In this document: positions 8,665 to 46,437 of the stretch, one piece after another
How the letters are laid out: each line of letters begins with the position of its first letter
How positions within the stretch are numbered: the first letter of the stretch is position 1
Source: Candidatus Paceibacter sp.
Lineage (GTDB): Bacteria; Patescibacteriota; Minisyncoccia; Phycocordibacterales; GCA-2747955
Direction of reading: 5' to 3'
Length of the DNA: 64,000 bases
Assembly: GCA_014237915.1 (NCBI GenBank)
Contig: JABACC010000013.1
Span: 64,568 to 128,567, forward strand
Made by a program: the position numbers and the translations under genes
Notes under the pieces: model-generated
Told to the model about the DNA's origin: nothing
Databases searched by the model: none
Seen by the model: the letters and a program-made list of their open reading frames with translations, nothing else

Positions 8665-8727
8665 TTTTTTTTATTAAAATTAATAATAATATAATTATAA
8701 CAAAATAAATTTAGTATAATAATAAAA

Positions 8728-9414: not shown

Positions 9415-9636
9415 TTTTTATATTTTTAGAGAGTTTTTTGGTAAAAATGTTACAATAAAAATATGAAAAAAATAGAGAAAAAAGATTTAAAAAATCAATC
9501 TAAAAATTCAAAAGAAGATAAAAAAGATGGAATTTTTTGCTGCGCCCACTGCACCACTTCTTTTTTTGGAATTGTTTTGGTTGTTTTTCTAGCTTATGTT
9601 TTTTCTTTATTTATAAAATAATTTTAGTTTAAGTTT

Positions 9637-12422: not shown

Positions 12423-13739
12423 TTATTTTTCTTTAAAATTAAAAATTATCTTTTTGGCACTTTCTTTTTTTAAGTTTGAAAAAGAAAGTAAGAAAATTCG
12501 AGAAACGGAAATTGCTGTTAACATTGAAACTAAAACACCTAAACCAAAAGTAATAGCGAATCCTTTAATTAGCGGGGTTGTCATATAAAATAAAATTATA
12601 GCAACTAAAATACTTGATAAGTTTCCATCTCTTATTGAAAGCCAGGCTCTTTTAAATCCGTCTTCAACAGCATCTTTAATTTGTTTATTTTTAAGCTCTT
12701 CTTTAATTCTTTCAAAAATCAAAATATTTGCATCAACAGCCATTCCTATAGAAATTATAAATCCCGCAATTGCTGCTGCGGTAAACACAAATCCAAAAAA
12801 TTTAAAAATTGAAAGTAAAAAAATTATGTAAATTAAAAGTGAAACAGAAGCTAAAAAACCAGAAAATCTGTAAAAATAAATTAGAAAAATTGCCACTAAA
12901 AAAAATCCAATAATTCCAGCTTTTATTCCGAGCTCCAAAGTATCTGCCCCCAAGGATGGTGAAATTGTATTTGTTCCCACAGCTTTTATCGAAAGAGGTA
13001 GTGCTCCGAAATTTAGATTTCTTACAAGCTCTCTTGATTCATCAACAGAAAAATCTCCTGTAATTTGGGCGTTTCCATCCAAAATAGCTGTTTGAATAAC
13101 TGGGCTTGAAATAATTTTTCCGTCTAAAAAAATAGCTAAAACTTCACCTATATTTTCTTCGGTTACTTTTCTAAAAGTTTCTGCTCCATTTGAATTAAAA
13201 TTTAAACTAACACTTGTTTGGCCAAATTCTCCAAAGTATAATTCAGCTCCATCAACATCTTTTCCTGAAAGACCGACGTCTTTATAGGTTAAGATTTCTG
13301 AAAAATTTTCAGCAACCTGATCTTCTGTTAAATTATTTAAATTTCTAATTTCTTGAAGTTTAAATTCTAAAAAAGGAAGTTCTCCAATTTTTTTTTTTGC
13401 TTCGTTTGAATCTGTAATTCCAGGAACAGAAACGATAATTCTTCTGAGAAGCTTTCCGTCATAATTAGAAAAAAGGGATGGTTTTTCTATTAAAATTGAA
13501 ACCTCACTCGTTCCATAAGTATTTAGTCTTTTTTGTAAAACCCCACGAAGTGCTTCAAGAGATTCATCTACATCTTCTAGTCTAATTTCAGAGATATCTG
13601 CTTCATAAATAATTTCTGTTCCCCCAGAAAGATCCAGCCCAAAAGCAAAATCTTTTTTCGAATTTTCAGGATTTAAATAAAAAAAAGCAAGCAAAAAAGC
13701 AATAATTACAAAAAAAATAGCTAAGATTTTGTTTTTCAT
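12423..13739 (-). CDS. secD: Protein translocase subunit SecD
   Basis: It has the GLDLSGG motif, a large periplasmic domain and C-terminal TM helices. Confidence 0.8.
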   Translation of the reverse strand: MKNKILAIFFVIIAFLLAFFYLNPENSKKDFAFGLDLSGGTEIIYEADISEIRLEDVDESLEALRGVLQKRLNTYGTSEVSILIEKPSLFSNYDGKLLRRIIVSVPGITDSNEAKKKIGELPFLEFKLQEIRNLNNLTEDQVAENFSEILTYKDVGLSGKDVDGAELYFGEFGQTSVSLNFNSNGAETFRKVTEENIGEVLAIFLDGKIISSPVIQTAILDGNAQITGDFSVDESRELVRNLNFGALPLSIKAVGTNTISPSLGADTLELGIKAGIIGFFLVAIFLIYFYRFSGFLASVSLLIYIIFLLSIFKFFGFVFTAAAIAGFIISIGMAVDANILIFERIKEELKNKQIKDAVEDGFKRAWLSIRDGNLSSILVAIILFYMTTPLIKGFAITFGLGVLVSMLTAISVSRIFLLSFSNLKKESAKKIIFNFKEK

Positions 13740-13792
13740 GTCTTAAAAAGATTATAACATTTTAAAATAAATTTAAAATTTAAATTAGAAAA

Positions 13793-17768: not shown

Positions 17769-18812
17769 TTAAATCTCTTTAGCTATTTTTTCAGAATGTA
17801 ATAAAAGTGTTTTTGAATATCCAGTTTCATTATCATACCAAAATAAAACTTTCACCAAATTTCCTCCAACAACTTTTGTAAAAGATTTATCTAAAATTGC
17901 AGCATATTCAGATCCCACAATATCAGAAGAAACAAGCGCCTCGTTTGAAACTGAAATAATTTCTCTGTATTTATCATCCAAAGAAGCCTCTTCAAAAATT
18001 TTATTTATTTCTTCTGAAGAAGTTTCTTTTTTAGAAACAAAAGTTAAGTCTGCAATTGAGCCTGCAATAGTTGGAACGCGAATAGAAATTCCATCAAATT
18101 TTCCAGAAAAATTTTCATTTGCCGAAGCTACCGATTTTGCAGCGCCAGTTGAGGTTGGCACAATATTAAAAGCTCCTGCTCTTCCTCTTCTAAAATCTTT
18201 TGAATGTGCTGAATCTACGATTTTTTGACTGGAAGTATAAGAATGAATTGTGTTTAAAAAAGCTTTTTCAACTCCAATTTTTTCATCTAAAATTTTTAAA
18301 GGAAGAGCTGTTGCGTTTGTAGTGCAAGATCCGTTTGAGCTTATATTTAAATTTTTTATTTTTTCATCATTAACTCCCATTAAAACTGTTTGCACAGAAG
18401 AAATATTTTCATTTTCATTTTCTTTAGATGGTGCGGAAATAACAACTTTTTTTGCTCCAGCTTCTAAATGTTTTTTTGCTCCAGCTTCTGTTTTAAAAAA
18501 ACCAGTTGATTCAATAACTACATCAATTTCTAATTCTTTCCAAGGTAGTTTTGCTGGATCAGCTTCTTGAAAAAAATTTATCTTTTTTCCACCATAAATC
18601 AAAAAATTATTATTTTCTTTTTCGTATGAAATTTTTTCTCTTTCACTCTCACTTTTTTTAAAAACGGAATCATATTTTAAAAGATAAGTTAAATTTTCTA
18701 AACTTCCAAGATCATTTATGGCTACAACTTCAATTTCTTCACTTTTTTTTGCTAAATTAAAATAAGCCCTCCCTATTCTTCCAAAACCATTTATTGCTAC
18801 TTTTTTTTTCAT
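17769..18812 (-). CDS. gap: Glyceraldehyde-3-phosphate dehydrogenase
   Basis: KVAINGFGRIGR is the NAD-binding motif and SCTTN contains the active-site Cys. Confidence 0.85.
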   Translation of the reverse strand: MKKKVAINGFGRIGRAYFNLAKKSEEIEVVAINDLGSLENLTYLLKYDSVFKKSESEREKISYEKENNNFLIYGGKKINFFQEADPAKLPWKELEIDVVIESTGFFKTEAGAKKHLEAGAKKVVISAPSKENENENISSVQTVLMGVNDEKIKNLNISSNGSCTTNATALPLKILDEKIGVEKAFLNTIHSYTSSQKIVDSAHSKDFRRGRAGAFNIVPTSTGAAKSVASANENFSGKFDGISIRVPTIAGSIADLTFVSKKETSSEEINKIFEEASLDDKYREIISVSNEALVSSDIVGSEYAAILDKSFTKVVGGNLVKVLFWYDNETGYSKTLLLHSEKIAKEI

Positions 18813-18868
18813 AAAAAAATTATAGCAAAATTAGAGAAAATAAAAAGAAAGGAATTTTTTAATTTATT

Positions 18869-20085: not shown

Positions 20086-21252
20086 TTAAAAAAAATTGAT
20101 AAGGTATTTAATTTTTAGGAAAATATTTTTATTTAAAATTTCCTGATTATCTGAAAAATCTTTCAAATCATTTTTTTTAAAAAACTTAATTCTGTTTTCA
20201 TCAAAAAGATTTAGGTCTCTTAAAATAAAATTTTCTTTATCATTTTCTGAATTTACAAAAACAGAAACTTTTTTAAAATCAATATTCTCACTTTCAAAAA
20301 AATCTTCTATTTTACTTTTTATTTGTTTTTCAAAAGCTTTAAAAATATGTTTAATTTTTTCTTGGGAAGAATTATTTATGGTTCCGGAAACATACATATT
20401 ATAAAGGCTTTTTGCTTCTTCTAAGTTTTTAGAAAAGCCAGAAGAAACCAATTCTCTTGCTAAAGTATTTTTTCCATGAGAAATGTTGCCGACAAAAACT
20501 ACTTTATTTTCAGAAAAATATCCAATTTCAATATCTTCTCCATAAAAATTTATAAAAACAAATTCCCCTTCTGGTTTGAAGATTAAATTTATATTTTCCA
20601 AAAAAGCTGGGGTCGAAGCTAAAGAAAATATTTTTTTTTGCATAAAATTTTTTTCTAAAATTCTTTCGAAATATTTTTTAGTTTCTTTTTCTGTTTTTGA
20701 ATTAAAAATAAAAGTTTTAATTTCTTTTATTTTTGCTGGAGGAATTTTTGAAATAGAAACTGGATAACCATTTATATTTAAATTATGAATTTTTTCGTTT
20801 AGAAAAATTTCACCTCTGTTTAAATTTTTAAATTCTTGAGATTGTAAACCTAGTTTTGCAAAATTTAAAAAATTTTTAAAAAACTTATTTGTTAAAGAAA
20901 AAGAAGAACTTTTTTCTGTTTTTATTATTTCATTTTTATAAAAAACAAATGGAGCTGAAAAAAATAAATAAATATTTTCTAAATCATCAAGAGAAAAAAA
21001 ATCTTTTGAATTTTTTTCAAGTTTCCCAATATAAGAAATAATTTCAGAAGAAATTTCATTTAATTTTTCTTCAGTTTCTTCTTTTAATTTTTCTTTATTT
21101 GGTTTATATTTTAAAAAAAGTTCTTTTTGAAAATTTTTTATAACATATGGATTTTTATTTTTTATTTCAAAAATAGCAGCACTAACTCCATTTGAACTTA
21201 TTTCAAAAATTAAATATTTTTTGTTTTCTCTGAGCGAAAAATTTTCTTTCAT
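20086..21252 (-). CDS. Hypothetical protein (388 aa)
   Basis: ORF only. A faint actin-like N-terminus (LIFEISSNGVSAAIFE) gives insufficient evidence for a call. Confidence 0.4.
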   Translation of the reverse strand: MKENFSLRENKKYLIFEISSNGVSAAIFEIKNKNPYVIKNFQKELFLKYKPNKEKLKEETEEKLNEISSEIISYIGKLEKNSKDFFSLDDLENIYLFFSAPFVFYKNEIIKTEKSSSFSLTNKFFKNFLNFAKLGLQSQEFKNLNRGEIFLNEKIHNLNINGYPVSISKIPPAKIKEIKTFIFNSKTEKETKKYFERILEKNFMQKKIFSLASTPAFLENINLIFKPEGEFVFINFYGEDIEIGYFSENKVVFVGNISHGKNTLARELVSSGFSKNLEEAKSLYNMYVSGTINNSSQEKIKHIFKAFEKQIKSKIEDFFESENIDFKKVSVFVNSENDKENFILRDLNLFDENRIKFFKKNDLKDFSDNQEILNKNIFLKIKYLINFF

Positions 21253-21284
21253 TTTTTTATTATATCAAAAAAGTAAAAAAATTT

Positions 21285-22137: not shown

Positions 22138-22737
22138 TTATAAATTTAAAGCTTCTTTAATTTTTTCAAAAATCTCTTCTTCTTTTCCTATTCCATTTAT
22201 TTTGTGGAAATTATAAAAATCAGAATTTTCTTCAAAATAATTTAAAACAGGAATTACCTCTGTTTGAAAAAATTCTAATCTATTTTTTATTTTCTCATCA
22301 GAAGAATCATCTTTTCTATTTGTTTCTCTTTTTTTAATTCTTGAAATAACTTCTTCGTCGGAAATATCTAAATAAACCACATCTGCTTTTTCAATTTTTA
22401 AAAATTTAAACATTTCGTCCATGGCTTCGGCTTCCAATATTTTCCGTGGAGAGCCATCAATAATTAAATTTTTCTCTGGGTGGTAAACTTTATGTAAAAA
22501 AGTAGACCAAACGGTGGTGGCCACAACTTCAGGAACCAAATTTCCAGATTCTTGAACTTTTTTTATCAAGCCAGCCACATATCCAGTTTCTTGCGAAATT
22601 TTTCTAAGGCCCGCTCCAATTGATAAAAAAACTAGTTCTTCATTTTTTTGGGCAAAATGATTTTTTAAAAATTTTATTTGAGTGCCTTTTCCTGAAGCTG
22701 ATTTTCCAAGAAAAATTAAATTTCTTTTTTTATTCAT
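22138..22737 (-). CDS. adk: Adenylate kinase (short, no Zn lid)
   Basis: The GKSASGKGTQ P-loop (GxxGxGKGTQ) is present. It is adjacent to map. Confidence 0.75.
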   Translation of the reverse strand: MNKKRNLIFLGKSASGKGTQIKFLKNHFAQKNEELVFLSIGAGLRKISQETGYVAGLIKKVQESGNLVPEVVATTVWSTFLHKVYHPEKNLIIDGSPRKILEAEAMDEMFKFLKIEKADVVYLDISDEEVISRIKKRETNRKDDSSDEKIKNRLEFFQTEVIPVLNYFEENSDFYNFHKINGIGKEEEIFEKIKEALNL

Positions 22738-22789
22738 ACAAAAATTATAGCATTTTATAAAAATTTTCTGAGTTAATTTTTAAAATTTT

Positions 22790-23347: not shown

Positions 23348-24193
23348 TTAATTTTTAACTAAATTTTTACCCGTATAGAAACTTGAAAAAACTTTAGATG
23401 TTTTTTTATTTTTTTGCAAATCTTCAAATCTCTTTATCGATAAATCTAGAAATTCTTTTTCTTTATCTATTCCAATAAATTTTCTTCCATATAGGTTTGC
23501 AATTATCCCAGTTGTGGAACTTCCCGTAAAAGGATCTAGTACAACATCTCCTTTGTTTGTACTAGACAGGACAATTCTTTTTAATAGATTTTCCGGTTTC
23601 TGTGTCGGGTGTTTACCAAATTTTTTTTCAATAGGTTTAGGTGTTGCCATAGACCAAACTGATCTCATCTGTAAATTTGGTTTTTTAATTTGATCTTCAG
23701 GCCAATCTCCGTTTTTCATTAAATCATAATTAAAGGTATGTTTGCCTTTCTTGTCTTTTCTTGCCCACACAAGTGTTTCATGACTTGCGGTAAAAAACCT
23801 GCAACTTAAATTAGGTGAGGCGTTCGGTTTAAACCAAGATACGTCATTTAAAATATGGAATTTATTTACCTGTAGCGCAAACCCACATTGGTAAATCGAG
23901 TGATAGGTTCCGCTTATCCAAATTGTTCCGTTTGGCTTTAAAACTCTCCTGCAAGCTTCTATCCAGGAAAGGTGGAAGTTAAAGTCTTCCTTAAGCCCGG
24001 AGCTCTTATCCCAATTTCCTTTGTCTACACTAACTCTTTTTCCCGACTGAACAGAAAAACCACCATTTGAGAGATTATATGGAGGATCTGCAAAAATCAT
24101 GTCAATTGAATTTTCTGGCAAAGAACTTAAAACTTCCAAGCAGTCATTTTGATAAAGTGAAAAATTTCTTTTTTTATAATAAACTTTTTTCAT
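23348..24193 (-). CDS. DNA methyltransferase, beta class, likely N6-adenine (possibly N4-cytosine)
   Basis: Motif IV IFADPPYNL precedes motif I LDPFTGSSTTG, which is the beta-class order. Confidence 0.8.
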   Translation of the reverse strand: MKKVYYKKRNFSLYQNDCLEVLSSLPENSIDMIFADPPYNLSNGGFSVQSGKRVSVDKGNWDKSSGLKEDFNFHLSWIEACRRVLKPNGTIWISGTYHSIYQCGFALQVNKFHILNDVSWFKPNASPNLSCRFFTASHETLVWARKDKKGKHTFNYDLMKNGDWPEDQIKKPNLQMRSVWSMATPKPIEKKFGKHPTQKPENLLKRIVLSSTNKGDVVLDPFTGSSTTGIIANLYGRKFIGIDKEKEFLDLSIKRFEDLQKNKKTSKVFSSFYTGKNLVKN

Positions 24194-24294
24194 AGAAATA
24201 TTTTAGCAAAAATAATTTTTTATACCAAATCATGAATTTGTTTTGAGTGGGAAATTGCGGAGCAATTTCCCACTCGAAAAAATTTTAAAAAATA

Positions 24295-26034: not shown

Positions 26035-26043
26035 TGTTAAAAT
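26035..26043 (+). promoter_or_regulatory. Extended -10 TGTTAAAAT 7 nt upstream of the valS ATG (leaderless-type)
   Basis: The sequence is ttTGTTAAAATtctttttATG. Confidence 0.45.
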
Positions 26044-26050
26044 TCTTTTT

Positions 26051-28162
26051 ATGAAAAAAAAATATACAGAGCCGTACAGGCCAGAAAAATATGAAGAACA
26101 AATTTATAAATCTTGGGAAGATTCTGGATTTTTTAATCCTGACAATTTACCAGATTTAAAAAATGGCCAAAAAAGAAAGGAAAATTTTTCAACAATAATG
26201 CCTCCTCCAAATGCCACAGGAAGATTACACGCAGGCCACGGAACAGATATGACCTTAAAAGATATTTTAACCAGATATCACAGAATGACTGGAAAAAAAA
26301 CTTTATTTTTACCCGGTTCTGATCACGCTGGTTTTGAAGCTCAAGAAACTTACGAGCGCAAAATTTCCAAAGAAGGAAAAAGTCGTTTTAAAATGGAAAG
26401 AGAAGAATTTTATAATGGAATTTATGATTTTGTAATGGAAAATAAAAAAAATTCTGAAAATGACATTAAAAAACTTGGAACTTCTTGCGACTGGTCTCGA
26501 AATACTTTTACCCTTGATCCGCAAATTGTTTCAAAAGTTTGTGATACTTTTATAAAAATGTATGCTGATGATTTGGTTTACAGAGGAAAAAGATGCATTC
26601 ATTGGAATCCAAAATTTCAAACTTCCCTCTCAGATATTGAAACAAAATTTGAAGATAGAAAAGATAAATTTTATTATTTTAAATATGGACCTTTTGTAAT
26701 TGGAACGGCTCGGCCAGAGACAAAATTTTCAGATAAATACATTGTCGTTCACCCAGATGACGAGCGATATAAAAAATATTCTCATATGCAAGAATTTGAA
26801 GTTGAATGGATAAATGGACCTATAAAAGCAACTTTACTAAAAGATGAAGTGGCTGACATGGAAATGGGTTCAGGAGCTATGACAATTACCCCTTGGCATT
26901 CTCAGGTTGATTTTGAGCTTGCTCAAAAATATAATCTTGAAATAGAACAAATTATAGACTGGAACGGAAAACTTTTGCCAGTTGCAGAAGAATTTGCGGG
27001 AATGAAAATTTTGGAAGCTCGAGAAAAAATTGTAGAAAAATTAGAAAAAAAAGGTCTTTTAGAAAAAATAGACGAAAATTACCAGCACAATGTGAGGCTT
27101 TGCGAGCGAACAAATGTTGTTGTTGAGCCCCAAATAAAAGATCAATGGTTTGTAAAAATGGAAGATTTTGCTAAAAAAAATCTTAAAGCTCTTGATGAAA
27201 AAAAAGTTAGAATTTTAACACCAGAGCAAGAAAAACAATTTCGTCATTGGATGGAAAACCCGATTGATTGGAATATTTCACGGCAAATTGTTTGGGGAAT
27301 TCAAATTCCAGCTTGGTTTAATGGTAGCGAAATAAAAATTCAAAAAGAAAATCCGGGAGATGGCTGGGTGCAAGACTCGGACACTTTTGATACTTGGTTT
27401 TCCTCTGGGCAGTGGCCTCTTTTAACTTTGGGTTTTCCAGACGGATCTGATATGGAATATTACCCCACGACTCTAATGGAAACTGGAAAAGATCTTGTTT
27501 TTAAATGGGTTCCAAGAATGTTGATGTTTGGGCTTTATTTAGACGGAAGAGTTCCTTTTAAAGATATTTATTTTCATGGAATGGTTTTAGATAAAAATGG
27601 AAAAAAAATGTCAAAATCAAAAGGAAATGTTCTCTCCCCTGTTGATTTGGCGGAAGAATTTGGAACAGATGCTACCCGAATGTCTTTTGTGGTAGCTAAT
27701 CCTCCCGGATCTGATATGCCACTTTCTCGAGAAAAAGTTTTGGCTTACAAAAAATTTGCAAACAAACTTTGGAATATAGCAAGATTTATTTATTCAAATA
27801 CAGAAAATTTTGATTATCAAAATTTTGATGAAAATTCTTTAGAAGATTATCAAAAAGAAAAAATTTCAGAATTGGAAAATTTCAAAAAAGAATATCAAAA
27901 AGAAATTGAAGATTATAAAATTTATTTAGTGGCTGAAAAAGTTTATCATTATATTTGGCACGAAGTGGCTGATAAAATTATTGAAGAAGTGAAAGATTCT
28001 GTTTTTTCTGATGAAAAAAATAAAAATAATCAGTTTTTACTTTTAAAAATTTTAGAAGAATCTCTAAAAATGCTTCATCCTTTTATGCCTTTTATCACGG
28101 AAGAGGTTTGGAAAGATTTTCCAAAAGAAAATAAAAATTTGTTAATGGTGGAAGAGTTTTAA
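26051..28162 (+). CDS. valS: Valine--tRNA ligase (short, lacks C-terminal coiled coil)
   Basis: It has PPPNATGRLHAGHG as the HIGH motif, GSDHAGFEAQ, DWNISRQIVWGIQIP and KMSKSKGN as the KMSKS motif. Confidence 0.8.
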   Translation: MKKKYTEPYRPEKYEEQIYKSWEDSGFFNPDNLPDLKNGQKRKENFSTIMPPPNATGRLHAGHGTDMTLKDILTRYHRMTGKKTLFLPGSDHAGFEAQETYERKISKEGKSRFKMEREEFYNGIYDFVMENKKNSENDIKKLGTSCDWSRNTFTLDPQIVSKVCDTFIKMYADDLVYRGKRCIHWNPKFQTSLSDIETKFEDRKDKFYYFKYGPFVIGTARPETKFSDKYIVVHPDDERYKKYSHMQEFEVEWINGPIKATLLKDEVADMEMGSGAMTITPWHSQVDFELAQKYNLEIEQIIDWNGKLLPVAEEFAGMKILEAREKIVEKLEKKGLLEKIDENYQHNVRLCERTNVVVEPQIKDQWFVKMEDFAKKNLKALDEKKVRILTPEQEKQFRHWMENPIDWNISRQIVWGIQIPAWFNGSEIKIQKENPGDGWVQDSDTFDTWFSSGQWPLLTLGFPDGSDMEYYPTTLMETGKDLVFKWVPRMLMFGLYLDGRVPFKDIYFHGMVLDKNGKKMSKSKGNVLSPVDLAEEFGTDATRMSFVVANPPGSDMPLSREKVLAYKKFANKLWNIARFIYSNTENFDYQNFDENSLEDYQKEKISELENFKKEYQKEIEDYKIYLVAEKVYHYIWHEVADKIIEEVKDSVFSDEKNKNNQFLLLKILEESLKMLHPFMPFITEEVWKDFPKENKNLLMVEEF

Positions 28163-28843
28163 GATTTTTTTTCTTCTTTCTTCATTTCTCTTGTTTACTT
28201 TATTTTCAATTTCAGAAAGATTAACTCTTTCTATAACAGAAAGTTTGGAGGCTCTTCCCCACTTATTGTTGCCGTCCTGTCCGTGAGAGCTTTCATCTCC
28301 TTTTTCAGATCTGATTAAATATAAAAAATTTCCACTATTTGGACCTATGTATCTACTCATGTAGTCATCTGAATAATAGGCTTTAGGATGATTATCGTCT
28401 CGTTCATCTTTTGCTAAACCATCTATATCCCAAATTTCTTTACCTGTATTATCTTCTTTAGGATTTATTTCAGATTTTGATAAATGGTAACCAATATCCC
28501 AATTATTTTTGATAGCTTGAGCTAATAAAAATTCTACAAAATCTTCTTCTGTTTTTTCGTCATTGTCAATTTTTTCTTTCCAAACCCTAAGTAAATTTTT
28601 TCTAATTTCAAAAGGATAAGACAGAATCCTTTTTCTATCTTCAACGATGTATTTTAAAATTTTTTCTCTTATTTTTTTTATTGAATCCTCATTAAAATAA
28701 ACTTCATAAGCCTCATCTTCTAGTTTTTTAGTGATTTCATTACAAACCTCTTCAGCAAAAAGTAAATTTCTTATTCTTTCATTTTCTTTTTCTTTTTCTT
28801 TATCGTTTTTAGAAAAATAAAAAGTTTTATTAAAATTTTCCAT
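28142..28843 (-). CDS. Hypothetical protein (233 aa)
   Basis: ORF only. Its 3' end overlaps the valS 3' end by 21 nt in a convergent arrangement. Confidence 0.4.
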   Translation of the reverse strand: MENFNKTFYFSKNDKEKEKENERIRNLLFAEEVCNEITKKLEDEAYEVYFNEDSIKKIREKILKYIVEDRKRILSYPFEIRKNLLRVWKEKIDNDEKTEEDFVEFLLAQAIKNNWDIGYHLSKSEINPKEDNTGKEIWDIDGLAKDERDDNHPKAYYSDDYMSRYIGPNSGNFLYLIRSEKGDESSHGQDGNNKWGRASKLSVIERVNLSEIENKVNKRNEERRKKILKLFHH

Positions 28844-28857
28844 AATCTTATTATATA

Positions 28858-29577
28858 CTAAACATTTATTTTGTCAATAAAAAATCCTCTTTTTTTATTG
28901 AATAAAAAAGAAATTTCCATATACGAATTTATTTTAAAAGTCTTAAAAATATCTAAAATTTCTTCGTAAACTTTATCTCTATCTTCTTGACTCAAATCAT
29001 TTAATTTTTCTTTTGGAATAATATTTGTTTCTCCAAAAATATCTTTATAAATTAAATAAGAAAAAATATTCCCTTCTACTTTTTCTTCGAGGAAAAAATC
29101 TTTTTTATCTTCTGAATTTAAGATTTTTTCGACTCCTTTTAAATCTTCAGGTTTTTCGATTTCAAAAAGCTTATTTTTTTTGAAATTTTTCAAAACTGAA
29201 GGTTGTGGAAAATTTTTCCAAATATCTAAAAAATTTTCTCCATCTTTAAATTCCAAAAAAGGTAAAACTCTGAAACTATTTTTACTTAAAAAATTTTTAC
29301 TATTTACAACACTTCCAAAAACTAATTTATTCATCAACGAATTTGAAATTTTCTTTTCTTCTTTTGTTGTTAAGCTGATTTTTTCTAAATTTTTATCAAA
29401 TAAAGTATTAAAAAAAACATAATTCGAATTTAAAATTTCTTCCTCTATTTTTTGGTAATCTTGAAAATTTTTTATTTTTTTGATTTCAAAATCAGTATTT
29501 ACTAAAATTTTTGAAATTAAATCTTTAATTTTTTCAAAATCTTTTTCTTTTTCTCCAATTATTAAAACTTTTTCCAT
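28858..29577 (-). CDS. Hypothetical protein, weak ATP-grasp-like C-terminal half
   Basis: The C-terminal pattern VEGNIFSYLIY...YMEISFLFNKKRGFFIDKIN loosely resembles an ATP-grasp core. Confidence 0.3.
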   Translation of the reverse strand: MEKVLIIGEKEKDFEKIKDLISKILVNTDFEIKKIKNFQDYQKIEEEILNSNYVFFNTLFDKNLEKISLTTKEEKKISNSLMNKLVFGSVVNSKNFLSKNSFRVLPFLEFKDGENFLDIWKNFPQPSVLKNFKKNKLFEIEKPEDLKGVEKILNSEDKKDFFLEEKVEGNIFSYLIYKDIFGETNIIPKEKLNDLSQEDRDKVYEEILDIFKTFKINSYMEISFLFNKKRGFFIDKINV

Positions 29578-29579: not shown

Positions 29580-30926
29580 TTAAATACTAAAATTTTTATA
29601 AAAATCTTCATCGCTATCTTCTCCGTCTTTTTTCTCTTCGTTATAATTTTCAAAATCAATAGTCGTCTCATTTTCTTTTTTACCAAAATCTTCTCCAATT
29701 ATAATTTCACTGCTTTGGATATTTTTTTCAAGCTCTGAAAATTTTTCTGAAAAAATTTCTTCTTCTGTTTTTTCTTTGTTTTTGAGCGGAAAAAGCGGAG
29801 CTTTTTCCGCTTCAACATATTTTTCAACATTTTCTATTTTTTCCGCATCTTTATTTTCCCTTCTAAAATCATTATTTAAATCTTTTTTTAACTCATCTAA
29901 TTTTTCATCATACGAAATACTTCCTAAAGTATAAGAAATTTCTTTATTTTCTTCTTCTAAATTTTCCCTCTCATCTTTTTCTTCAAAATTCTTTTCATCA
30001 TTTTGATTAAAATCCAAACTTGGATTTTGATCAAATAGAAAATCGTCTTCGGGTTTTTTTTCTTCTGGTTTTTGCGGAAAAAGCTTCGCTTTTTCCGCAT
30101 CTCCATTTTTATCAATAATATTTAAAATATTTTGTAAACCTTCTTTTGAAAAAACATCCACCATTAATTTCATTCCTTTTTTTCTTTTTTCAACTTTCAC
30201 TGGCGAACCAAGTTTATCAGAAATTTTATTTTCAATTTCTCTAATCTCAGGATCAAAAACATCTTTTTTAGATTTACCCACCACAATATTTCTTGCAATT
30301 TTTTCAGCTTCTCTAACTGTTAAATCATATTCTAAAATCTCTTCCAATAATTTTTTCTGATCTTCCTCTTTTTCTTTCAACATTAAAAGCGGGCGTGTAT
30401 GCCCTTCTGAAATTTTTCCCGCCTGCAAAGCTTCCAAAATATTTTCAGGTAAAAGCAAAATTCTCAAAGCGTTTGAAATATATTCTCTGGATTTTCCCAT
30501 TTTTTCAGCAATTTGATCATGAGTTAGAGAAAATTCCTCTGAAAGCCTTTGAAAAGATTTTGCTTTATCGATTGGATTTAAATCCTCTCTTTGTAAATTC
30601 TCAATAATGGCAAGTTCTAATTTTTCACCTTCCGTGTTTTCTCCTTCTCTGATAATTGCGGGGATTTTTTTTAGGTTTGCTATTTTAGAAGCTCTAAATC
30701 TTCGCTCTCCTGCAATAATTTCAAAAAAAGAATTTTCTAAATCATCAGAATCTGAAATGGAAGATTTTTTTCTAACCACCACTATCGGTTGTAAAACACC
30801 ATACTGGGAAATTGAAGAAGCTAAATTATTTAATTTTTCTTCGTCAAAAAATTTTCTTGGCTGGTCTGGATTTGGAATAACTTTTTCTAAATCCAAATAA
30901 AAGACAGAGTTTTGTTTAAAATTCAT
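29580..30926 (-). CDS. parB: ParB/Spo0J-like protein with a long acidic C-terminal extension
   Basis: The N-terminus has VIPNPDQPRK...LQPIVV and the FEIIAGERRFRASK (GERRxRA) CTP-binding box. No parA is adjacent. Confidence 0.75.
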   Translation of the reverse strand: MNFKQNSVFYLDLEKVIPNPDQPRKFFDEEKLNNLASSISQYGVLQPIVVVRKKSSISDSDDLENSFFEIIAGERRFRASKIANLKKIPAIIREGENTEGEKLELAIIENLQREDLNPIDKAKSFQRLSEEFSLTHDQIAEKMGKSREYISNALRILLLPENILEALQAGKISEGHTRPLLMLKEKEEDQKKLLEEILEYDLTVREAEKIARNIVVGKSKKDVFDPEIREIENKISDKLGSPVKVEKRKKGMKLMVDVFSKEGLQNILNIIDKNGDAEKAKLFPQKPEEKKPEDDFLFDQNPSLDFNQNDEKNFEEKDERENLEEENKEISYTLGSISYDEKLDELKKDLNNDFRRENKDAEKIENVEKYVEAEKAPLFPLKNKEKTEEEIFSEKFSELEKNIQSSEIIIGEDFGKKENETTIDFENYNEEKKDGEDSDEDFYKNFSI

Positions 30927-30981
30927 AAAATAATTTTAACATTTTTAAGAAAAGAAAAAAATTAGTGTATAATTAAAAATA

Positions 30982-32925
30982 ATGAATAAAATTTACACAG
31001 GGAAAGTTAGGGTTTCCCACAAAAAAAAAGGTTTTTTTAATACAGACGATTTTGAAAAAAGTATCATTGTTGAAACAGAAAATTTGGGTGGCGCTCTTGA
31101 TCTTGATTTGGTGGAAATTTCTTTTTTGAAAAACAATTCTTATGGAGACCCTTTAGGGAAAGTAGAAAAAATAATTTCTCGAAACAAAGATCTTCATGTT
31201 GGAAAATTAATTAAATCTTTTAATCCTAAAACAAGAAAAAAAGAACTCATCTTTACGCCCGACAACTACCGATTTTACCCCGATGTTGAATTTCAAAATT
31301 TAGAAAAATTTGAAAAAGCAGAAGAGGGCTACAAAGTTTCTATAAAAATAGAAGACTACAAAAATTCTGACTCTTTAGCAAAAGCTGAAATTATTGAAAT
31401 TTTGGGGAAAGCTGGAAAAAATGAAACGGAAATGAAAGCAGCTGTTTTAGAAGCTGGACTTCCCTTTTATTTTCCAGAAGAGGTTGAAAAAGAAGCAGAG
31501 GAAATTAAAAAAAATTCTTCAAAAATAATTGAAGAAGAAAAAAAAAATAGAAAAGATTTAACCCATCTTAATGTTTTTACAATTGATCCGGCTGATGCTA
31601 AAGATTTTGACGACGCGCTTTCTGTTGAAAAACTAGACGACGGAAATTTTAGAGTTGGAATTCATATCGCAGATCCTTCTTTTTTTGTGAAAAAAAATTC
31701 TCTGCTTGAAAAAGAAGCTCAAAAAAGAGCAACTTCGATTTATTTAGTCGATAGAACAATTCCGATGCTTCCTGAAGTTTTATCAAATGATCTTTGCTCT
31801 TTAAACCCTAACGAAGAAAAACTTACTTTTTCTGTTTTGGTCACTTTATCCGCTGAAGCAAAAATTTTAAAAACAGAGCTTGTAAATTCTTTTGTTGTTT
31901 CAAAAAAAAGATTTGATTATTTGGGGGCTCAAAAAATTTTAGATGAAAAAAATGGAGATTTTTTGGAAGATTTACAGATTTTAGAAAACTTGGCTGATAA
32001 TTTAGAAAAACAAAAGAAAAAAGGTGGATCGATAGAATTTTCTTCTGTGGAAGTAAAGTTTAAGCTTGATGAGGAAAAATTTCCAGTAGGAGTTTTTGTT
32101 AAAAAAAGAGTCAGGACAATGGAAATTATCGAAGAGTTTATGCTTTTGGCAAATAAAGAAATTTCAAAATACGCTTCTCTTTCGAGTTCTGGAGAAGAAC
32201 TTTCAAGGGCTTTTATTTATAGAATTCACGACAAGCCAAAACAAGAAAGAATTACAGAACTAATTTCTTTCCTTTCTGATTTAGGAGAAAAAGTTGATGA
32301 AGACGAAGACGGAAATTTAAGCTCACACGAAATAAATAAAATTTTAAAAAAGTTTAAAGATCATCCTTTGGAAGATTTAATTTCTCTTTCTATTTTAAGA
32401 TCAATGCAAAAAGCGGTTTACTCCACAAATAATATCGGTCATTTTGGTCTTGGATTTAAATATTATTCTCATTTTACTTCCCCTATTCGTCGTTATCCTG
32501 ACATGATAGCTCACCGGCTTTTGCGAGATTATTTGCAAGGCTTAAATCACGATCAAAAAAAAGAAGCTGAAATTTCAGCTCTTGCAGAACACTCTTCTGA
32601 AATGGAGGCAAAAGCGGTCACAGCCGAACGAGCTTCAATTTTATTTAAACAAACTCAATATTATTCTGTTAGAGTTTCTGAAGAATTTTCAGGAATGGTT
32701 GTGGGAGTAAATAAATTTGGAATTTTTGTAGAAAATATCCAAACAAAAACAACTGGAACTCTTTCAGTGCGTGATATTTATGGAGATTTTTTTGAATTTA
32801 ATGAAAAAAAAAGAGAGCTTGTTGGAAAAAACACAAAAAGAAAATTTAAACTTGGAGATAAAATAAAAGCAAAAATAAAAGAAGTAGATATAGAAAATAG
32901 AAAAATAAATTTAACATTAAAATGA
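30982..32925 (+). CDS. rnr: Ribonuclease R / RNase II family exoribonuclease
   Basis: The RNB domain (DDALSVEKL...IHIADPS), a C-terminal S1 domain and a basic tail are present. Confidence 0.8.
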   Translation: MNKIYTGKVRVSHKKKGFFNTDDFEKSIIVETENLGGALDLDLVEISFLKNNSYGDPLGKVEKIISRNKDLHVGKLIKSFNPKTRKKELIFTPDNYRFYPDVEFQNLEKFEKAEEGYKVSIKIEDYKNSDSLAKAEIIEILGKAGKNETEMKAAVLEAGLPFYFPEEVEKEAEEIKKNSSKIIEEEKKNRKDLTHLNVFTIDPADAKDFDDALSVEKLDDGNFRVGIHIADPSFFVKKNSLLEKEAQKRATSIYLVDRTIPMLPEVLSNDLCSLNPNEEKLTFSVLVTLSAEAKILKTELVNSFVVSKKRFDYLGAQKILDEKNGDFLEDLQILENLADNLEKQKKKGGSIEFSSVEVKFKLDEEKFPVGVFVKKRVRTMEIIEEFMLLANKEISKYASLSSSGEELSRAFIYRIHDKPKQERITELISFLSDLGEKVDEDEDGNLSSHEINKILKKFKDHPLEDLISLSILRSMQKAVYSTNNIGHFGLGFKYYSHFTSPIRRYPDMIAHRLLRDYLQGLNHDQKKEAEISALAEHSSEMEAKAVTAERASILFKQTQYYSVRVSEEFSGMVVGVNKFGIFVENIQTKTTGTLSVRDIYGDFFEFNEKKRELVGKNTKRKFKLGDKIKAKIKEVDIENRKINLTLK

Positions 32926-32975: not shown

Positions 32976-32984
32976 TGCTATAAT
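32976..32984 (+). promoter_or_regulatory. Extended -10 TGCTATAAT 6 nt upstream of the murC ATG (leaderless-type)
   Basis: The sequence is ttTGCTATAATcttaaaATG. Confidence 0.45.
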
Positions 32985-32990
32985 CTTAAA

Positions 32991-34283
32991 ATGTTAGAAA
33001 ATCTAAAAAATAAAAAAGTGTTTTTTATTGGGGTTGGTGGAATTGGAGTTTCCTCACTTGCAAAATTTTTTAAAAATAAAGGTTTTGAAATTTTCGGATC
33101 TGATGCGTCTAAAAATGAAAACGTTCAAGGTCTAATTGAAAAATATAATTTAAATTTTCATCTTGGGCACGAAGCTAAAAATATTCAGAAAGATTTAGAT
33201 CTTATTATTTATTCTCCTGCAATTTCTGAGCAAAATCCAGAAAGAAAAAAAGCTAAAGAGTTTGAAATTCCTCAATTTTCCTATCCAGAATTTTTAGGAA
33301 AAATTTCAGAAAAAATTAAAACAATTGCGGTTTCAGGAACAAACGGAAAAACAACAACAACCTCAATGATTTATGAAATTTTAAAAGATCAAAATATTGA
33401 TCCTCTTTTAATTTTAGGTGGGATTTCCAAAAAAATAAATTCTAATTTTTCTTCCGGAAAAGACGATCTTTTTTTAGTTGAGGCTTGTGAATACAAAAAA
33501 TCTTTTCTTTCAATAAAGCCTGATATTTTAATAATCACAAATATTACCCCTGATCATTTAGATTACTTTAAAGATTTTAATGAAATTAAAAAAACTTTTT
33601 CAAATTTTGTGGAAAATATAAAAGAAGGAGGAAAATTAATTATTCCAGAAAAATCACCAGTTTTTGAAGAAATTGTAAAAAAAGCTCTTTTGCAAAAAAT
33701 TGAAATTTATACTTTCTTAGATGAAAAAAAAGATTTAAAAGTAAAATCTCCGGGTGAACATAATAGACAAAACGGAGCAGCTGCAATTTCTTTTTCTAAA
33801 ATTTTTTCTTTGGATTATCAAAAATCAAAAAAATATTTAGAAGAAAATTTTTCAGGAACAAAAAGAAGAATGGACGAAATAGGAAAAACGGATTATGGAG
33901 CTACAATTTTTGACGATTACGCTCACAACCCTGAAGGTTTAAATTTTTTAGTAGAAACTTTCAAAAACGAATACCCTCAAAAAAAAATTATAATTATTTT
34001 TTCTCCTCATCTTTATTCAAGAACAAAAAAATTTTTTAATGAATTTGTAAATATTTTAAAAAAAGCTAATTTTTCTTATATCGAACCAATTTACGCCGCC
34101 AGAGAAATAAAAGATCCAACGATTAATTCAGAAAAATTTTGTTTATATTCAGAAAATTCTTTTTGTGGATCAAGAGAAGAGATTAAAAAAAATATTGAAG
34201 AAAAAAAATATAATGAAAATTATATTTTAGTAACCGTCGGAGCTGGAGATATAGACAAACTTGCTTACGAGTTAAAAAACTAA
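32991..34283 (+). CDS. murC: UDP-N-acetylmuramate--L-alanine ligase
   Basis: It has FFIGVGGIGVSSLA and the GTNGKTTTTSMI P-loop of the Mur ligase family. Confidence 0.85.
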   Translation: MLENLKNKKVFFIGVGGIGVSSLAKFFKNKGFEIFGSDASKNENVQGLIEKYNLNFHLGHEAKNIQKDLDLIIYSPAISEQNPERKKAKEFEIPQFSYPEFLGKISEKIKTIAVSGTNGKTTTTSMIYEILKDQNIDPLLILGGISKKINSNFSSGKDDLFLVEACEYKKSFLSIKPDILIITNITPDHLDYFKDFNEIKKTFSNFVENIKEGGKLIIPEKSPVFEEIVKKALLQKIEIYTFLDEKKDLKVKSPGEHNRQNGAAAISFSKIFSLDYQKSKKYLEENFSGTKRRMDEIGKTDYGATIFDDYAHNPEGLNFLVETFKNEYPQKKIIIIFSPHLYSRTKKFFNEFVNILKKANFSYIEPIYAAREIKDPTINSEKFCLYSENSFCGSREEIKKNIEEKKYNENYILVTVGAGDIDKLAYELKN

Positions 34284-36781: not shown

Positions 36782-39535
36782 TTATTTTTTAATTCTTTTG
36801 GTTTTTTCTAATGTTTTTTTTAAATATTCTCCGGTTAAAGAATTTTTATTTTTTGCAATATCTTCTGGGGTTCCTTTTGCTACTATATTTCCGCCTTTTT
36901 CTCCGCCTTCGGGACCAAAATCTAAAATATAATCTGCAGTTTTTATTAAATCTAAATTATGCTCAATAACTAAAACAGAATTTCCTCTATCTACCAATTT
37001 TTGTAAAATATCGTTTAGCTTCGCCACATCGTCATAATGAAGGCCGACGGTTGGCTCATCTAAAAGATACATTGTTTTTTCTGTAAAAGGCCTGTAAAGC
37101 TCTGAAGATATTTTTACCCTTTGTGCTTCCCCACCTGATAAAGTATTCGCTGACTGCCCTAACTTTAAGTACCCCAAACCAACGTCTTCTAAAGTTTTTA
37201 ATCTATCATAAACCGCTGGAATTTCTGTGAAAAATTTTGCGGCTTTAGAAATTTCCATATCTAAAACTTCAGCAATATTTTTGGATTTATAGGTTACCTC
37301 TAAAGTTTCTTTGTTAAATCTTTTTCCAAAACAAATATCACATTTTACATAGACTGTTGGTAAAAAATGCATCTCTACTGCAATATATCCATTTCCAGAA
37401 CAAGCTTCACATCTTCCACCTTTTACATTAAAAGAAAATCTTCCAGGTTTATAACCGCGAATTTTTGCTTCTGTTGTTTCTGCAAATAAATCTCGAATAT
37501 GAGAAAAAGCTCCTGTGTAAGTTGCTGGGTTTGATCTTGGAGTTCTCCCGATTGGCGACTGGTCTATTAAAACTTGTCTTGAAATATACTCTAAACCAAA
37601 AATTTTTTTACAATTAAAAACTTTAGCTGAACGGTATTTTCTATCAAACCGAGCTCTTAAATTTTTATATAAAATTTCGTGAACAAAAGAAGATTTTCCA
37701 GAGCCTGAAACTCCCGTAATACAAACAAGTTTTCCAAGTGGAATTTCAACATTTAAATTTTTTATATTAAAAATCTCTCCTTCAGAAACTATTATTTTTC
37801 CCATATCATGATTTCTTTTATTTTTCTTAATTTCAATAACCTCTTCCTCTCTTAAATAAGCCAAGGTTCTAGATCCTGAAAAATTTTTAGAAGAAGTTAA
37901 AAGATCCTCTAAAAAACCAGAAGCAACAATTTCTCCGCCCAAAACTCCAGCTTTAGGGCCAACATCAACAAGGTAATCTGCAGAATAAATTACATCTTCG
38001 TCGTGTTCAACAACAATAACCGTATTTCCTAAATCTCTCATTTTCAAAAGTGTTTTTATTAATCTGTCATTATCTCTTTGATGTAGGCCGATTGTTGGCT
38101 CATCTAAAACATAAGTTGCCCCCACAAGCCCCGAACCTAGTTGTGAAGCAAGTCTAATTCTTTGTGCCTCTCCGCCTGACAAGGTATTTGCTTTTCTATT
38201 TAAAGTTAAATATTCTATTCCCACATTTAACATAAAAGAAAGTCTTTCTTTTATTTCCCTCATAATTGGTTTAGAAATTTCCTCTTCTTTTTTATTTAAT
38301 TTCAAATTATCAAAAAAATCTAATGCATCAGAAACTGAAAATGAAGTAACATCAACAATATTTAAACCAGATGATTTATAAAATTTTTCATCTTTAATTG
38401 AAGAAGTTTTTGATTTTCCTTTTCCTAAAAAAACATTTAAAGACTCTGGTTTTAATCTATTTCCATTACAAGTTTGGCAGGGCTCTGTTCCATAAAAAAA
38501 TCTTGAGCCTAAACCATTACAAGCTTCACACGCTCCAACTGGCGAGTTAAAAGAGAAAAGCCTTGGTTCTATTTCAGAATATGAAAATCCATCGTTGGGA
38601 CAAGAAAATTTAGACGAAAGCAAAAATTCTGTATCAACTTTTTCTTTTTGAAAAATTTTTTCAAGACCTTTTTTCTCAAATGAAAAAACTCCTAAAACAA
38701 GTCCTTCTGACTCATCAATGGCTTTTTCTATAGATTCAGATAAAGCTCCTCTAAAATCTTTTCCTCCTGCTAAAAACTCTGAAAAATAAAATTCATCAAT
38801 TAAAACTTCAATATTATGTTTTTTGTTTTTTGAAAGTGGAATTTTATCTCGTAAAGAAAAAATTTCTCCATCAACCCTTACTTTAGAATATCCCTTTGAA
38901 AGTAGGTCGTATAGAAGCTGGTAGTATTCTCCTTTTCTTGATTTTACAACAGGTGAAAAAAGAAAAATTTTTGAATTTTCCGCATCAACTCCTAAAATTT
39001 CTTGGCTTTTTGCTTTTTCTGATAAAATTTTTTTAGCATCTGAAACTTTTTTTTCAAAAAAAGAAACAATTTCATCGAGTGAAAGTTTAGAAATTTCTTG
39101 TCCGCAAACAAGACAATGTGGTTTTCCAATACGTGCATACAAAACCCTCATATAGTCATAAATTTCTGTGATTGTGGCAACTGTTGATCTGGGGTTGTTT
39201 GAACGAGATTTTTGATCAATGGAAATTGCAGGAGATAAGCCAATAATTTCATCAACATCTGGTTTTTGCATTTGATTTAAAAATTGCCTTGCGTAAGCTG
39301 ACAGAGATTCCACATACCTTCTCTGACCTTCTGCAAAAATTGTATCAAAAGCAAGTGAAGATTTTCCAGATCCAGAAAGCCCCGTAATAACACTTAATTT
39401 ATTCCTTGGAATTTCTACTGAAATATTTTTTAGATTGTGGGTTCTGGCTCCTTTTACAATAATTTTTTCAGGAAAATTTAATTCTTCTTTTTTATTTTTT
39501 TTTATTTTAGACATTTTGTCTGCAAATTTTATCAC
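36782..39535 (-). CDS. uvrA: Excinuclease ABC subunit A
   Basis: Two ABC ATPase modules ([15 protein letters not shown] and [15 protein letters not shown]), zinc-finger Cys clusters and a LSGGEAQR signature are present. Confidence 0.9.
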
Positions 39536-39575
39536 ACTTACTTATTTTTTTTCATTTTTTTAGTATAATAAGAAT

Positions 39576-40523
39576 ATGTATGAAAAATTTCATAGAGAAG
39601 GAATTGATTGGTATCATTTCGAATCAATAACAAAAAATAAAGATTCTAAAGAAAAATTTTTAATTTTAGCTGAAGAAAAAAACATAAGTCGTTATATTCA
39701 GAAAAATTTTTACTCTGATTTAAAAAGAGACCGAACTTCTCTTTCAGAAAGACATCTTTTTATTTCTTTTGAACTTCCAGATCTTTTTGGAAAATTTGAA
39801 AAATATAGAAAACAGGAGATAAAAATAATAATGGGAAAAGATTTTTTGATTACCTCTTCAATTTATCCAGACCAAGGTTTGAAAAATTTTAAAAATCATT
39901 TTAATAATTTAGAATCTTTTGATTCTAATAAAATAAATTGTGTTTTGCCAACATGTGTAGTTTATTATTTTGTTTATTTAATCGAAAAAATTTATGAAAA
40001 TCTAAATTCTGATCTTTTAAAAATTCGTGAGGAAATTGAAGAAATTGAAGAAGAGATTTTTACAGAAAAAGAATTTATAATGGTTAAAAAAATATCACTA
40101 ACAAATAGAAGGCTTTTAGACTTTAGAAAAATCTTAAGGGCTCAAAAAACAACTTGGCATTATTTTTTTGAAATTTCAAAAAATTTTTTTGAAAAAGAAA
40201 GTTCTCATAATGCTATAGACTCAATTGTTCTTTCTCATGATATTTCTTATCAAAATGCAGAAGAATTGAAAGAAATGCTGTGGGAGCTTCGTGATACAAA
40301 TAATTCCCTTCTATCTTCCAAGCAAGCAGAAGCTTCAAAAACTTTTACCTTAATTGCTTTTTTAACCCTACCGATAACTTTATTTATTTCCATAATTTCT
40401 CTTCCAACAAATCAATCTCATCTTTTCTTGGGTCATAAAAATGATTTCACTCTCACAATTATAATTTCACTTCTGCTTTTTAGTTTAACTTTATATATTT
40501 CAAGAAGGAAAAAATGGTGGTAA
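39576..40523 (+). CDS. CorA-like divalent cation transporter family protein (GMN motif not conserved)
   Basis: A ~250-aa soluble N-domain precedes two C-terminal TM helices in which LPTNQ replaces the usual YGMN. Confidence 0.4.
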   Translation: MYEKFHREGIDWYHFESITKNKDSKEKFLILAEEKNISRYIQKNFYSDLKRDRTSLSERHLFISFELPDLFGKFEKYRKQEIKIIMGKDFLITSSIYPDQGLKNFKNHFNNLESFDSNKINCVLPTCVVYYFVYLIEKIYENLNSDLLKIREEIEEIEEEIFTEKEFIMVKKISLTNRRLLDFRKILRAQKTTWHYFFEISKNFFEKESSHNAIDSIVLSHDISYQNAEELKEMLWELRDTNNSLLSSKQAEASKTFTLIAFLTLPITLFISIISLPTNQSHLFLGHKNDFTLTIIISLLLFSLTLYISRRKKWW

Positions 40524-45408: not shown

Positions 45409-45438
45409 AAATAAATTATAACAAAAAAAATTCTAAAA

Positions 45439-46434: not shown

Positions 46435-46437
46435 AAA

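Follow-up and report, generated by a model that had tools for sequence, protein, structure and literature searches.

The DNA analysed here is a stretch of 64,000 nucleotides (referred to below as the window) from Candidatus Paceibacter sp. (assembly GCA_014237915.1, contig JABACC010000013.1, positions 64,568 to 128,567 of the forward strand). The window is AT-rich (GC 25-31%; 72-75% A+T) and densely coding, uses genetic code 11 and carries four tRNA genes. At its valS gene, a box resembling an extended -10 promoter is separated from the start codon by 7 nt (TGTTAAAAT-TCTTTTT-ATG; 26035..26053 (+), ATG 26051). An earlier note on this DNA had pointed to the same order of box, short spacer and ATG at at least eight genes (rpsO, valS, rnr, murC, trpS, fmt, thrS and yqeY). 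We found the geometry at all eight, and their gene names agree with NCBIfam and Pfam; the pattern is real, but the number was an undercount, as the window holds 23 modules of this leaderless type. In this report we describe the modules, the evidence that the box is a promoter, and the way in which translation of the corresponding genes probably begins.

Gene calls and start codons

Two sets of gene calls were used. The first comprised 67 starts in the window; the HU gene was misplaced in it, at 3015-3320 (-), its position in the independent calls being 2980-3252 (+), on the other strand. This list was possibly biased, and the statistics were therefore repeated on independent calls, taken from ENA ERZ23487945 scaffold_38 (169,162 bp, in which the window corresponds to 102,817-166,816), with 80 genes over 75 kb.

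The valS gene is an open reading frame (ORF) of 703 aa, assigned to valine-tRNA ligase by NCBIfam, with residue 8 placed on model position 3. No ATG, GTG or TTG codon occurs between the upstream in-frame stop (25976) and ATG 26051, so the start of this gene is not in doubt, and alignments of ValS relatives begin at query residues 1-5. The starts of the modules are further constrained by stop codons close upstream, and those of the other genes were compared with family models in the same manner. The models begin 1-11 residues from the proposed methionine in GAPDH, Adk, the methyltransferase, ValS, ParB and MurC, and likewise in UppP, DnaE, RlmB, TrpRS, Fmt and ThrRS; the exceptions are MreB, with an extension of 17 residues, and RNase R, in which the N-terminal domain is missing. 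ValS (26051-28162 (+)) and RNase R (30982-32925 (+)) are both shortened proteins: the former covers model positions 3-693 of 860 and lacks the C-terminal coiled-coil domain, and the latter starts at model position 68.

Geometry of the modules

The motif TGNTAWAAT occurs 46 times in the window, compared with 17.2 +/- 4.4 times in dinucleotide-preserving shuffles, none of 100 of which reached this number (6.5 standard deviations). The majority of the copies (28/46) end no more than 40 nt upstream of a gene start on the same strand, and one more precedes tRNA-Asn. The distances of the 28 copies from the start are 6 nt (11 copies), 7 nt (4 copies), 9, 10, 11 and 11 nt, and then 16 to 39 nt. The 17 copies left over equal the chance expectation, and the whole excess thus lies upstream of genes or tRNA.

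When only the hexamer was considered, TAnAAT ended 6-8 nt before the start of 22 of the 67 genes (15, 6 and 1 at 6, 7 and 8 nt, respectively), compared with 18 of 1225 other ATGs (1.5%; odds ratio 33, p=7.9e-20) and two of 93 non-coding ATGs, one of which is the start of a called 52-aa gene. With the independent calls, the hexamer was found at this distance in 24 of 80 genes (18, 5 and 1 at 6, 7 and 8 nt, and none at 5 nt), 22 of them starting with ATG and two with GTG. The motif frequency at starts is far above background, which rejects the AT-rich-background alternative that had been set beforehand as grounds for giving up the proposal. Codons 2-4 are richer in A in the leaderless genes (70%) than in the others (55%), a difference that we judged too weak to interpret.

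Evidence that the box is a promoter

The 22 modules of the first gene list were picked on the hexamer alone, so any enrichment of TG in front of it is independent of the selection. They carry the signature of an extended -10 element, in that position -15 is T in 19/22 of them and position -14 is G in 16/22, against 14% G in the background. A conserved -35 hexamer is absent from the 22 modules (there is no information content at this position), and the spacer is T-rich. Pairs of the TTGACA-N16-18-TATAAT type were not enriched over shuffles in the window (97 vs 85.5, 88 vs 81.4 and 89 vs 78.4). Extended -10 promoters are recognised through region 3.0 of a housekeeping sigma factor, and no sigma factor gene was found in the gene calls for the 75 kb.

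The motif is also located upstream of tRNA-Asn (at 13 nt), tRNA-Thr(tgt) (16 nt) and tRNA-Gly (22 nt); in the case of tRNA-Asn it reads TGTTAAAAT (53539..53561 (+)). As these genes are not translated, its presence there points to a promoter and not to a translation signal. A further gene, tRNA-Thr(ggt) (45509-45583 (-)), is detected by ARAGORN, but the Rfam tRNA model misses it at gathering threshold. It has a TAAAAT box that ends 7 nt ahead of its first base, so that transcription of this gene might begin at the mature 5' end or close to it.

The distribution of the box among genes was analyzed with the independent calls, an internal gene being defined as one that follows another gene within 30 nt. 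The box was found at 21 of 57 genes that are first in their unit and at 2 of 22 internal genes (p=0.015), and the two box-bearing internal genes look like cases of internal promoters.

Terminator-like hairpins are 3-5 fold enriched over shuffles. At murC, the gene starting at 21252 and dnaE, a long and perfect terminator hairpin and its T-run lead straight into the TG of the box. In the case of murC this is the 20-bp terminator hairpin of rnr, with T6 running into the TG, and in the case of the 21252 gene a 17-bp hairpin (21284-21320) with a T-run adjoining the box; the promoters of trpS and of thrS/rpsB likewise have hairpins a short way upstream. Since the terminators adjoin the box, the upstream transcript should stop there, and the only room for a new start is in the last 14 nt or so before the ATG. 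Divergent gene pairs are separated by spacers of 55-74 nt, each with two back-to-back boxes.

A perfect palindromic terminator-like hairpin (56797-56842; AAAAAGCGGGCAAAAAGC-TTCG-GCTTTTTGCCCGCTTTTT) is located in the spacer of rpsB and thrS, between their divergent promoters; no transcript should have to be terminated at this site, and the hairpin might serve as an insulator or as an operator. Two spacers that are long for this genome, 48757-49062 (306 nt) and 17383-17768 (386 nt), contain several long hairpins each, for which Rfam returned sub-threshold hairpin matches only.

Absence of Shine-Dalgarno sites

Shine-Dalgarno (SD) sites were scored as the 4-mers AGGA, GGAG or GAGG at positions -20 to -5. 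Such 4-mers precede only 2 of the 67 genes, which is below the 9.1% observed at control ATGs, and none of the 24 modules defined with the independent calls; at a Bacillus locus used as a control of the script, they were found at 4 of 8 genes. These results do not agree with the view of the earlier note that an SD-led mode of initiation coexists with the leaderless one. The SD-like purine runs that it had noticed at two tiny ORFs are indeed present, but they do not amount to a second mode: they occur solely at a called 39-aa ORF (50008) and an uncalled 27-aa ORF (4585).

The 39-aa ORF (50008-50127; MKKFPITVDYVMYFYDPCREGFFNIWNDPLPAKEVLSGN) is served by the one textbook promoter of the window (TTGCAA-16-TATAAT), which gives a leader of about 24 nt. 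An SD-like AGAGGA sequence is located 7 nt before its ATG, and terminators lie on either side (49891-49927 and 50147-50167).

The internal genes (n=22) have stop-start gaps of -8 to 27 nt, 11 of which are no longer than 3 nt, and their upstream sequences are A-rich. The modes coexisting with leaderless initiation are probably initiation on short leaders lacking SD sites and re-initiation at internal genes. No rRNA gene is present in the window, and no 16S motif was found in 45 fetched loci.

The individual modules

The modules are distributed along the whole window. Near its left end, that of rpsO, whose product matches Ribosomal_S15, occupies 210..227 (-), with TGTTAAAAT at 227-219, 6 nt before ATG 212. 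It is followed by the module of a gene for a stand-alone ComEC C-terminal metallo-beta-lactamase domain protein (1138..1155 (-); TGTTAGAAT, 6 nt, GTG 1140). This gene (271-1140 (-), 289 aa) is an ORF without any in-frame ATG. At uppP (1193..1211 (+)), TAGTAAAAT ends 7 nt before ATG 1209, and residue 1 of the protein corresponds to model position 1. Three further modules precede a 95-aa ORF (7716..7733 (-); TAGAAT, 6 nt, ATG 7718), a 228-aa ORF (8712..8730 (+); TAGTATAAT, 7 nt, ATG 8728) and the called 52-aa gene (9448..9465 (+); TGTTACAAT, 6 nt, ATG 9463).

The box TGCTATAAT is found 6 nt before the start of gap, encoding GAPDH (18810..18827 (-), ATG 18812; residue 1 at model position 1), and of adk (22735..22752 (-), ATG 22737). 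The 388-aa ORF whose terminator adjoins the box (the 21252 gene mentioned above; 21250..21267 (-)) has TGATATAAT 6 nt before ATG 21252, and the gene of an N6-adenine methyltransferase (24191..24208 (-)) has TGCTAAAAT 6 nt before ATG 24193. At a 233-aa ORF (28841..28858 (-)), TATAAT is located 6 nt before ATG 28843, and a TTGACA -35 hexamer is present; this module lies 14 nt past the upstream gene and is a candidate internal promoter.

The parB and rnr genes are arranged back-to-back, with a 55-nt spacer. The parB module (30924..30941 (-)) consists of TGTTAAAAT and a 6-nt spacer before ATG 30926, and that of rnr (30965..30984 (+)) of (G)TGTATAAT and an 8-nt spacer before ATG 30982. The TATAAT reported previously for rnr is present at this distance, but its TG is displaced by one base. 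Downstream of rnr, whose terminator leads into the TG of the next box, murC (32976..32993 (+)) has TGCTATAAT 6 nt before ATG 32991, and corA (39561..39578 (+)) has TAGTATAAT 6 nt before ATG 39576.

The box TGTTATAAT precedes dnaE (45406..45423 (-); 6 nt, ATG 45408), the upstream terminator hairpin of which is located at 45440-45482, as well as trpS (48754..48771 (-); 6 nt, ATG 48756; residue 1 at model position 1) and fmt (49048..49065 (+); ATG 49063). For fmt, the 6-nt spacing had been given correctly, but the box is not merely TATAAT but the full TGTTATAAT. In the remaining modules the box is TGTTAAAAT: these are rlmB (46432..46450 (-); 7 nt, ATG 46434), whose box lies within the end of the upstream gene and is another candidate internal promoter, mreB (52804..52822 (-); 7 nt, ATG 52806), thrS (56859..56877 (+); 7 nt, ATG 56875, the database caller having chosen ATG 56761) and yqeY (62893..62910 (+); 6 nt, ATG 62908).

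At some other genes the box is slightly more distant, and these were classified as near-leaderless: an ftsA/pilM-like gene (6286..6306 (+); TGTTATAAT, 9 nt, ATG 6304), with a predicted leader of about 2-3 nt, secD (13737..13759 (-); TGTTATAAT, 11 nt, ATG 13739), uvrA (39512..39534 (-); TGATAAAAT, 11 nt, ATG 39514), rpsB (56757..56778 (-); TGTTAAAAT, 10 nt, ATG 56759) and an HTH/Panacea gene (59809..59829 (-); TATAAT, 9 nt, ATG 59811). The last of these belongs to a region extending from tRNA-Asn to gatB (53765-61152) which, on the basis of precomputed Pfam matches only, is a possible defence or toxin-antitoxin island, with genes for SduA_C (Shedu-type; 53765-55012), HTH_3 plus SocA_Panacea (59122-59811) and DUF3800 (60499-61152) proteins.

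Start codons predicted from the geometry

In two cases the position of the box suggests a start codon different from that in public annotation. The homology of thrS begins at residue 49 of the 619-aa form proposed by the database caller, which is residue 11 when counted from 56875. This fits a start at 56875, as the promoter geometry predicts, and the public call (56761) would be 38 codons too early. For uvrA, the GTG chosen by the caller (39535) overlaps the -10 box itself, and ATG 39514, 11 nt after the box, appears the more plausible start. The two miscalls are likely to represent systematic errors of callers without a leaderless model. This bears on the annotation of Candidate Phyla Radiation (CPR) bacteria: thrS, and probably uvrA, were mis-started by a caller that does not model leaderless starts.

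Occurrence of the geometry in relatives

ValS homologues place the lineage in the CPR/Patescibacteria, within the class Paceibacteria; they bear labels such as Nomurabacteria, Kaiserbacteria, Pacebacteria and Parcubacteria. The sample of relatives comprised 18 loci (266 kb) with 233 ORFs called by their first ATG. With the strict TAnAAT hexamer and first-ATG ORFs, the signal looked weak in relatives of higher GC, but it was clear with the relaxed motif TGnTAnnnT and with added loci that have database gene calls. The relaxed motif ended 6-8 nt before 22 of the 233 starts; of 9143 ATGs serving as controls, 38 had it at this distance (odds ratio 25, p=1e-20). A Nomurabacteria genome of 48% GC also has the leaderless geometry. 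In the closest relative (L022; 81% ValS identity) it is kept at valS, parB, rnr, rpsO, gyrB and trmD, although the sequences of the boxes differ.

At valS, the spacing between box and start is 6-9 nt in L005, L006, L007, L009, L012, L013, L022 and L025, and 21-36 nt, without an SD site, in eight other relatives; in L023 and L024 no nearby box is evident. Genuine AGGAGG sites were found at 27-50% of genes in L001, L002, L003 and L014 and at none in many other relatives, and in the SD-using relatives valS is leadered. With metagenome loci included, the leaderless geometry was observed at 1 of 83 genes in SD-rich loci and at 40 of 303 genes in SD-poor loci (p=5e-4, with a post hoc cut-off of 25%). 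When SD use and leaderless geometry were compared per locus, the Spearman coefficient was -0.25 (p=0.32) for the 18 loci and -0.39 (p=0.056) after addition of metagenome loci. An anticorrelation of the two among the relatives is therefore only suggested.

In two loci of related, SD-free Paceibacteria (L024:14340-17315 and L025:4466-5166), strong AGGAGG sites are found at genes that lie beside an integrase or transposase and at none of the neighbouring core genes, which suggests that mobile elements or phages use an initiation signal unlike that of their host.

Proposed mechanism of initiation

The motif, its geometry and statistics, the absence of SD sites, the adjoining terminators and the conservation in relatives are direct observations. 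We consider it highly probable that extended -10 promoters yield leaderless mRNAs as a major mode of expression in this organism, with transcription starts predicted from the position of the box. The claim of the earlier note that the extended -10 places the start of transcription on or beside the A of the ATG, and that this is a major mode, was backed by every sequence-level test that we ran. The promoters would be independent of a -35 hexamer, consisting of a T-rich tract followed by TGnTA(A/T)AAT, and the first base transcribed by RNA polymerase would be the A of the ATG or the base preceding it. With a 6-nt spacer, the A of the ATG is the seventh base after the hexamer, and thus occupies the canonical +1 position; a spacing of 7 bp between -10 box and start site has been reported across bacteria (PMC12641261).

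The resulting mRNA would begin with 5'-AUG, without a leader and without an SD site. Leaderless mRNAs are recognised through their 5'-terminal start codon by the 70S ribosome or by a complex of 30S, IF2 and fMet-tRNA, and entry at the 5'-AUG would presumably follow the 70S or the 30S/IF2 route here as well. According to this model, approximately 40-50% of the transcription units in the 75 kb would be leaderless or have a leader of no more than 5 nt. The other genes that are first in their units would have short A/U-rich leaders lacking SD sites, 13-39 nt separating their -10 box from the start codon, and operon-internal genes located 1-3 nt past the previous stop are consistent with re-initiation.

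Several points weigh against this interpretation. The choice of the start site can shift by 1-2 nt, so that leaders of 1-3 nt are possible on some of the mRNAs. Read-through from upstream units could still reach those genes that have no visible terminator in front of them, and the modules at 28843 and 46434 lie just after or within an upstream gene. Two modules start with GTG, which in E. coli is a weaker leaderless start. The sole set of CPR start sites was inferred from RNA-seq and comes from Nanosynbacter lyticus (PMC12641261).

Three other explanations of the geometry were considered. That the box before the ATG is a functionless by-product of AT-rich intergenic DNA (27% GC) might be expected in a genome of 72-75% A+T, in which TAnAAT hexamers are common and promoter-like sites with two hexamers are no commoner than in shuffles. 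Such a by-product should be spaced evenly, but the spacing has a spike at 6 nt and is not flat; only two of 93 non-coding ATGs show the geometry, and one of these is the start of the 52-aa gene; the motif count exceeds that of the shuffles by far; the frequency of G at -14 lies outside the selection criteria; and the signal remains in relatives of 36-48% GC. The chance that the box is functionless is in our opinion negligible. It is very improbable, too, that the promoters are real but the annotated starts are wrong, with translation beginning at a downstream codon and the leader misread as coding sequence. The disagreement of the callers on thrS (56761 or 56875) and uvrA (39535 or 39514), and the 17 residues ahead of the model start in MreB, could be read in this way, but in 14 proteins the family models align 1-11 residues from the methionine (GAPDH, UppP and TrpRS from residue 1), ValS relatives align from the first residues of the query, SD-like sequences are absent inside the N-termini of these genes, and the exact 6-nt register between box and ATG would be left unexplained.

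The remaining explanation is that the mRNAs have leaders and are transcribed from promoters farther upstream, the box serving them as an A/U-rich element for ribosome binding or enhancement that is not of the SD type, as in the 'group B' of Bacteroidetes. It accords with the lack of an SD signal in the organism and with the A-rich sequences upstream of internal genes, and A/U-rich upstream regions are known to help SD-independent initiation (PMC6028130). A ribosome-binding site should, nevertheless, precede every gene, and the criterion for group B is a motif upstream of first and internal genes alike (PMC6028130), but here the motif is absent from 20 of the 22 internal genes. The box contains the promoter-specific TG, is also found before untranslated tRNA genes, and precedes other genes by distances that vary from 9 to 39 nt. 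The adjoining terminators should halt the upstream transcripts before they reach the box, and the divergent spacers of 55-74 nt are too small for additional promoters. On these grounds a ribosome-binding function appears unlikely, and we prefer extended -10 promoters located so close to the start codon that the mRNA would have no leader.

Implications and comparison with known systems

Considering the relatives together with the window, it may be tentatively proposed, with somewhat more doubt than confidence, that the lineage has abandoned the SD mechanism: about half of its units would be leaderless, expressed from modules of terminator, extended -10 and ATG, the rest would rely on SD-less leaders and re-initiation, and the regime would flip between sister lineages. 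If true, the published loss of the anti-SD sequence and of bS21 in approximately half of Parcubacteria would be tied to a concrete replacement mechanism, and a testable answer would be available to the question, left open by Tsurumaki et al. 2022, of how Parcubacteria without an anti-SD sequence start translation. The modules would also provide design rules for the genetics of Patescibacteria (TGnTAWAAT, 6 nt, ATG and no ribosome-binding site), and the split into SD-using and SD-free forms among close relatives would constitute a natural system for the switching of initiation regimes during genome reduction.

A Pribnow box located 6-8 nt from the start of first operon genes is the signature of bacterial leaderless transcription, by which 'group C' was defined with GeneMarkS-2 (PMC6028130). 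This group includes 90% of Actinobacteria and 97% of Deinococcus-Thermus, and leaderless genes make up 167 of the 262 that were mapped in D. deserti (PMC6028130). The modules described here resemble those of group C (Mycobacterium tuberculosis, Deinococcus deserti, Streptomyces; PMC6028130) in the distance of 6-8 nt and the restriction to first operon genes, in the predicted leaderless share (about 40%, inside the 25-50% of group C), and in that the -10 box is essentially the sole promoter signal visible near the start. They differ from it in the GC content of 27%, in their explicit extended -10 (TGn) and in that no class of genes uses SD sites; the remaining genes of group C use SD sites, and the second half of this dual model has no counterpart in the window. 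The mechanism itself is known; what sets this case apart is its host lineage, its low GC content and its explicit extended -10, and that the rule by which other genes use SD sites does not hold.

Members of group C with genetic code 11 are almost all of high GC, and the low-GC members described are Mycoplasma with code 4 (bioRxiv 10.1101/2022.07.25.500264); CPR bacteria are not mentioned in the main text of this study or of PMC6028130. The low GC content and reduced genome are shared with these Mycoplasma, 30-60% of whose transcripts are predicted to be leaderless (bioRxiv 10.1101/2022.07.25.500264). In contrast to them, the organism studied here has genetic code 11, is a member of an unrelated phylum and synthesizes peptidoglycan (murC, PBP, uppP), and the Mycoplasma models still contain SD-type ribosome-binding sites.

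In haloarchaea such as Haloferax volcanii, most transcripts are leaderless and the leadered ones are SD-independent, which resembles the regime that we propose here. The promoters are nevertheless different, an archaeal TATA box located about 26 nt upstream and archaeal factors being replaced by a bacterial -10 box of the sigma-70 type. In model bacteria, the extended -10 (TGnTATAAT) usually drives leadered mRNAs. The modules agree with such promoters (the 'Ex' element, PMC12641261) in the TG one base before the hexamer and the lack of a conserved -35, and differ from them in that the box stands in a fixed register with the start codon.

We found no description of leaderless initiation in CPR bacteria in the literature on Patescibacteria, CPR, Parcubacteria or Saccharibacteria, and a preprint on the TM7x transcriptome contains no information on untranslated regions or promoters. 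Tsurumaki et al. 2022 (PMC9297842) observed CCTCCT in no more than 48% of the 16S genes of Parcubacteria, as well as a frequent absence of bS21; the start of translation in such organisms is left unaddressed, and the word 'leaderless' occurs 0 times. The window belongs to the same broad lineage as these Parcubacteria, and their features match both the absence of SD sites found here and the split into SD-using and SD-free forms among the relatives.

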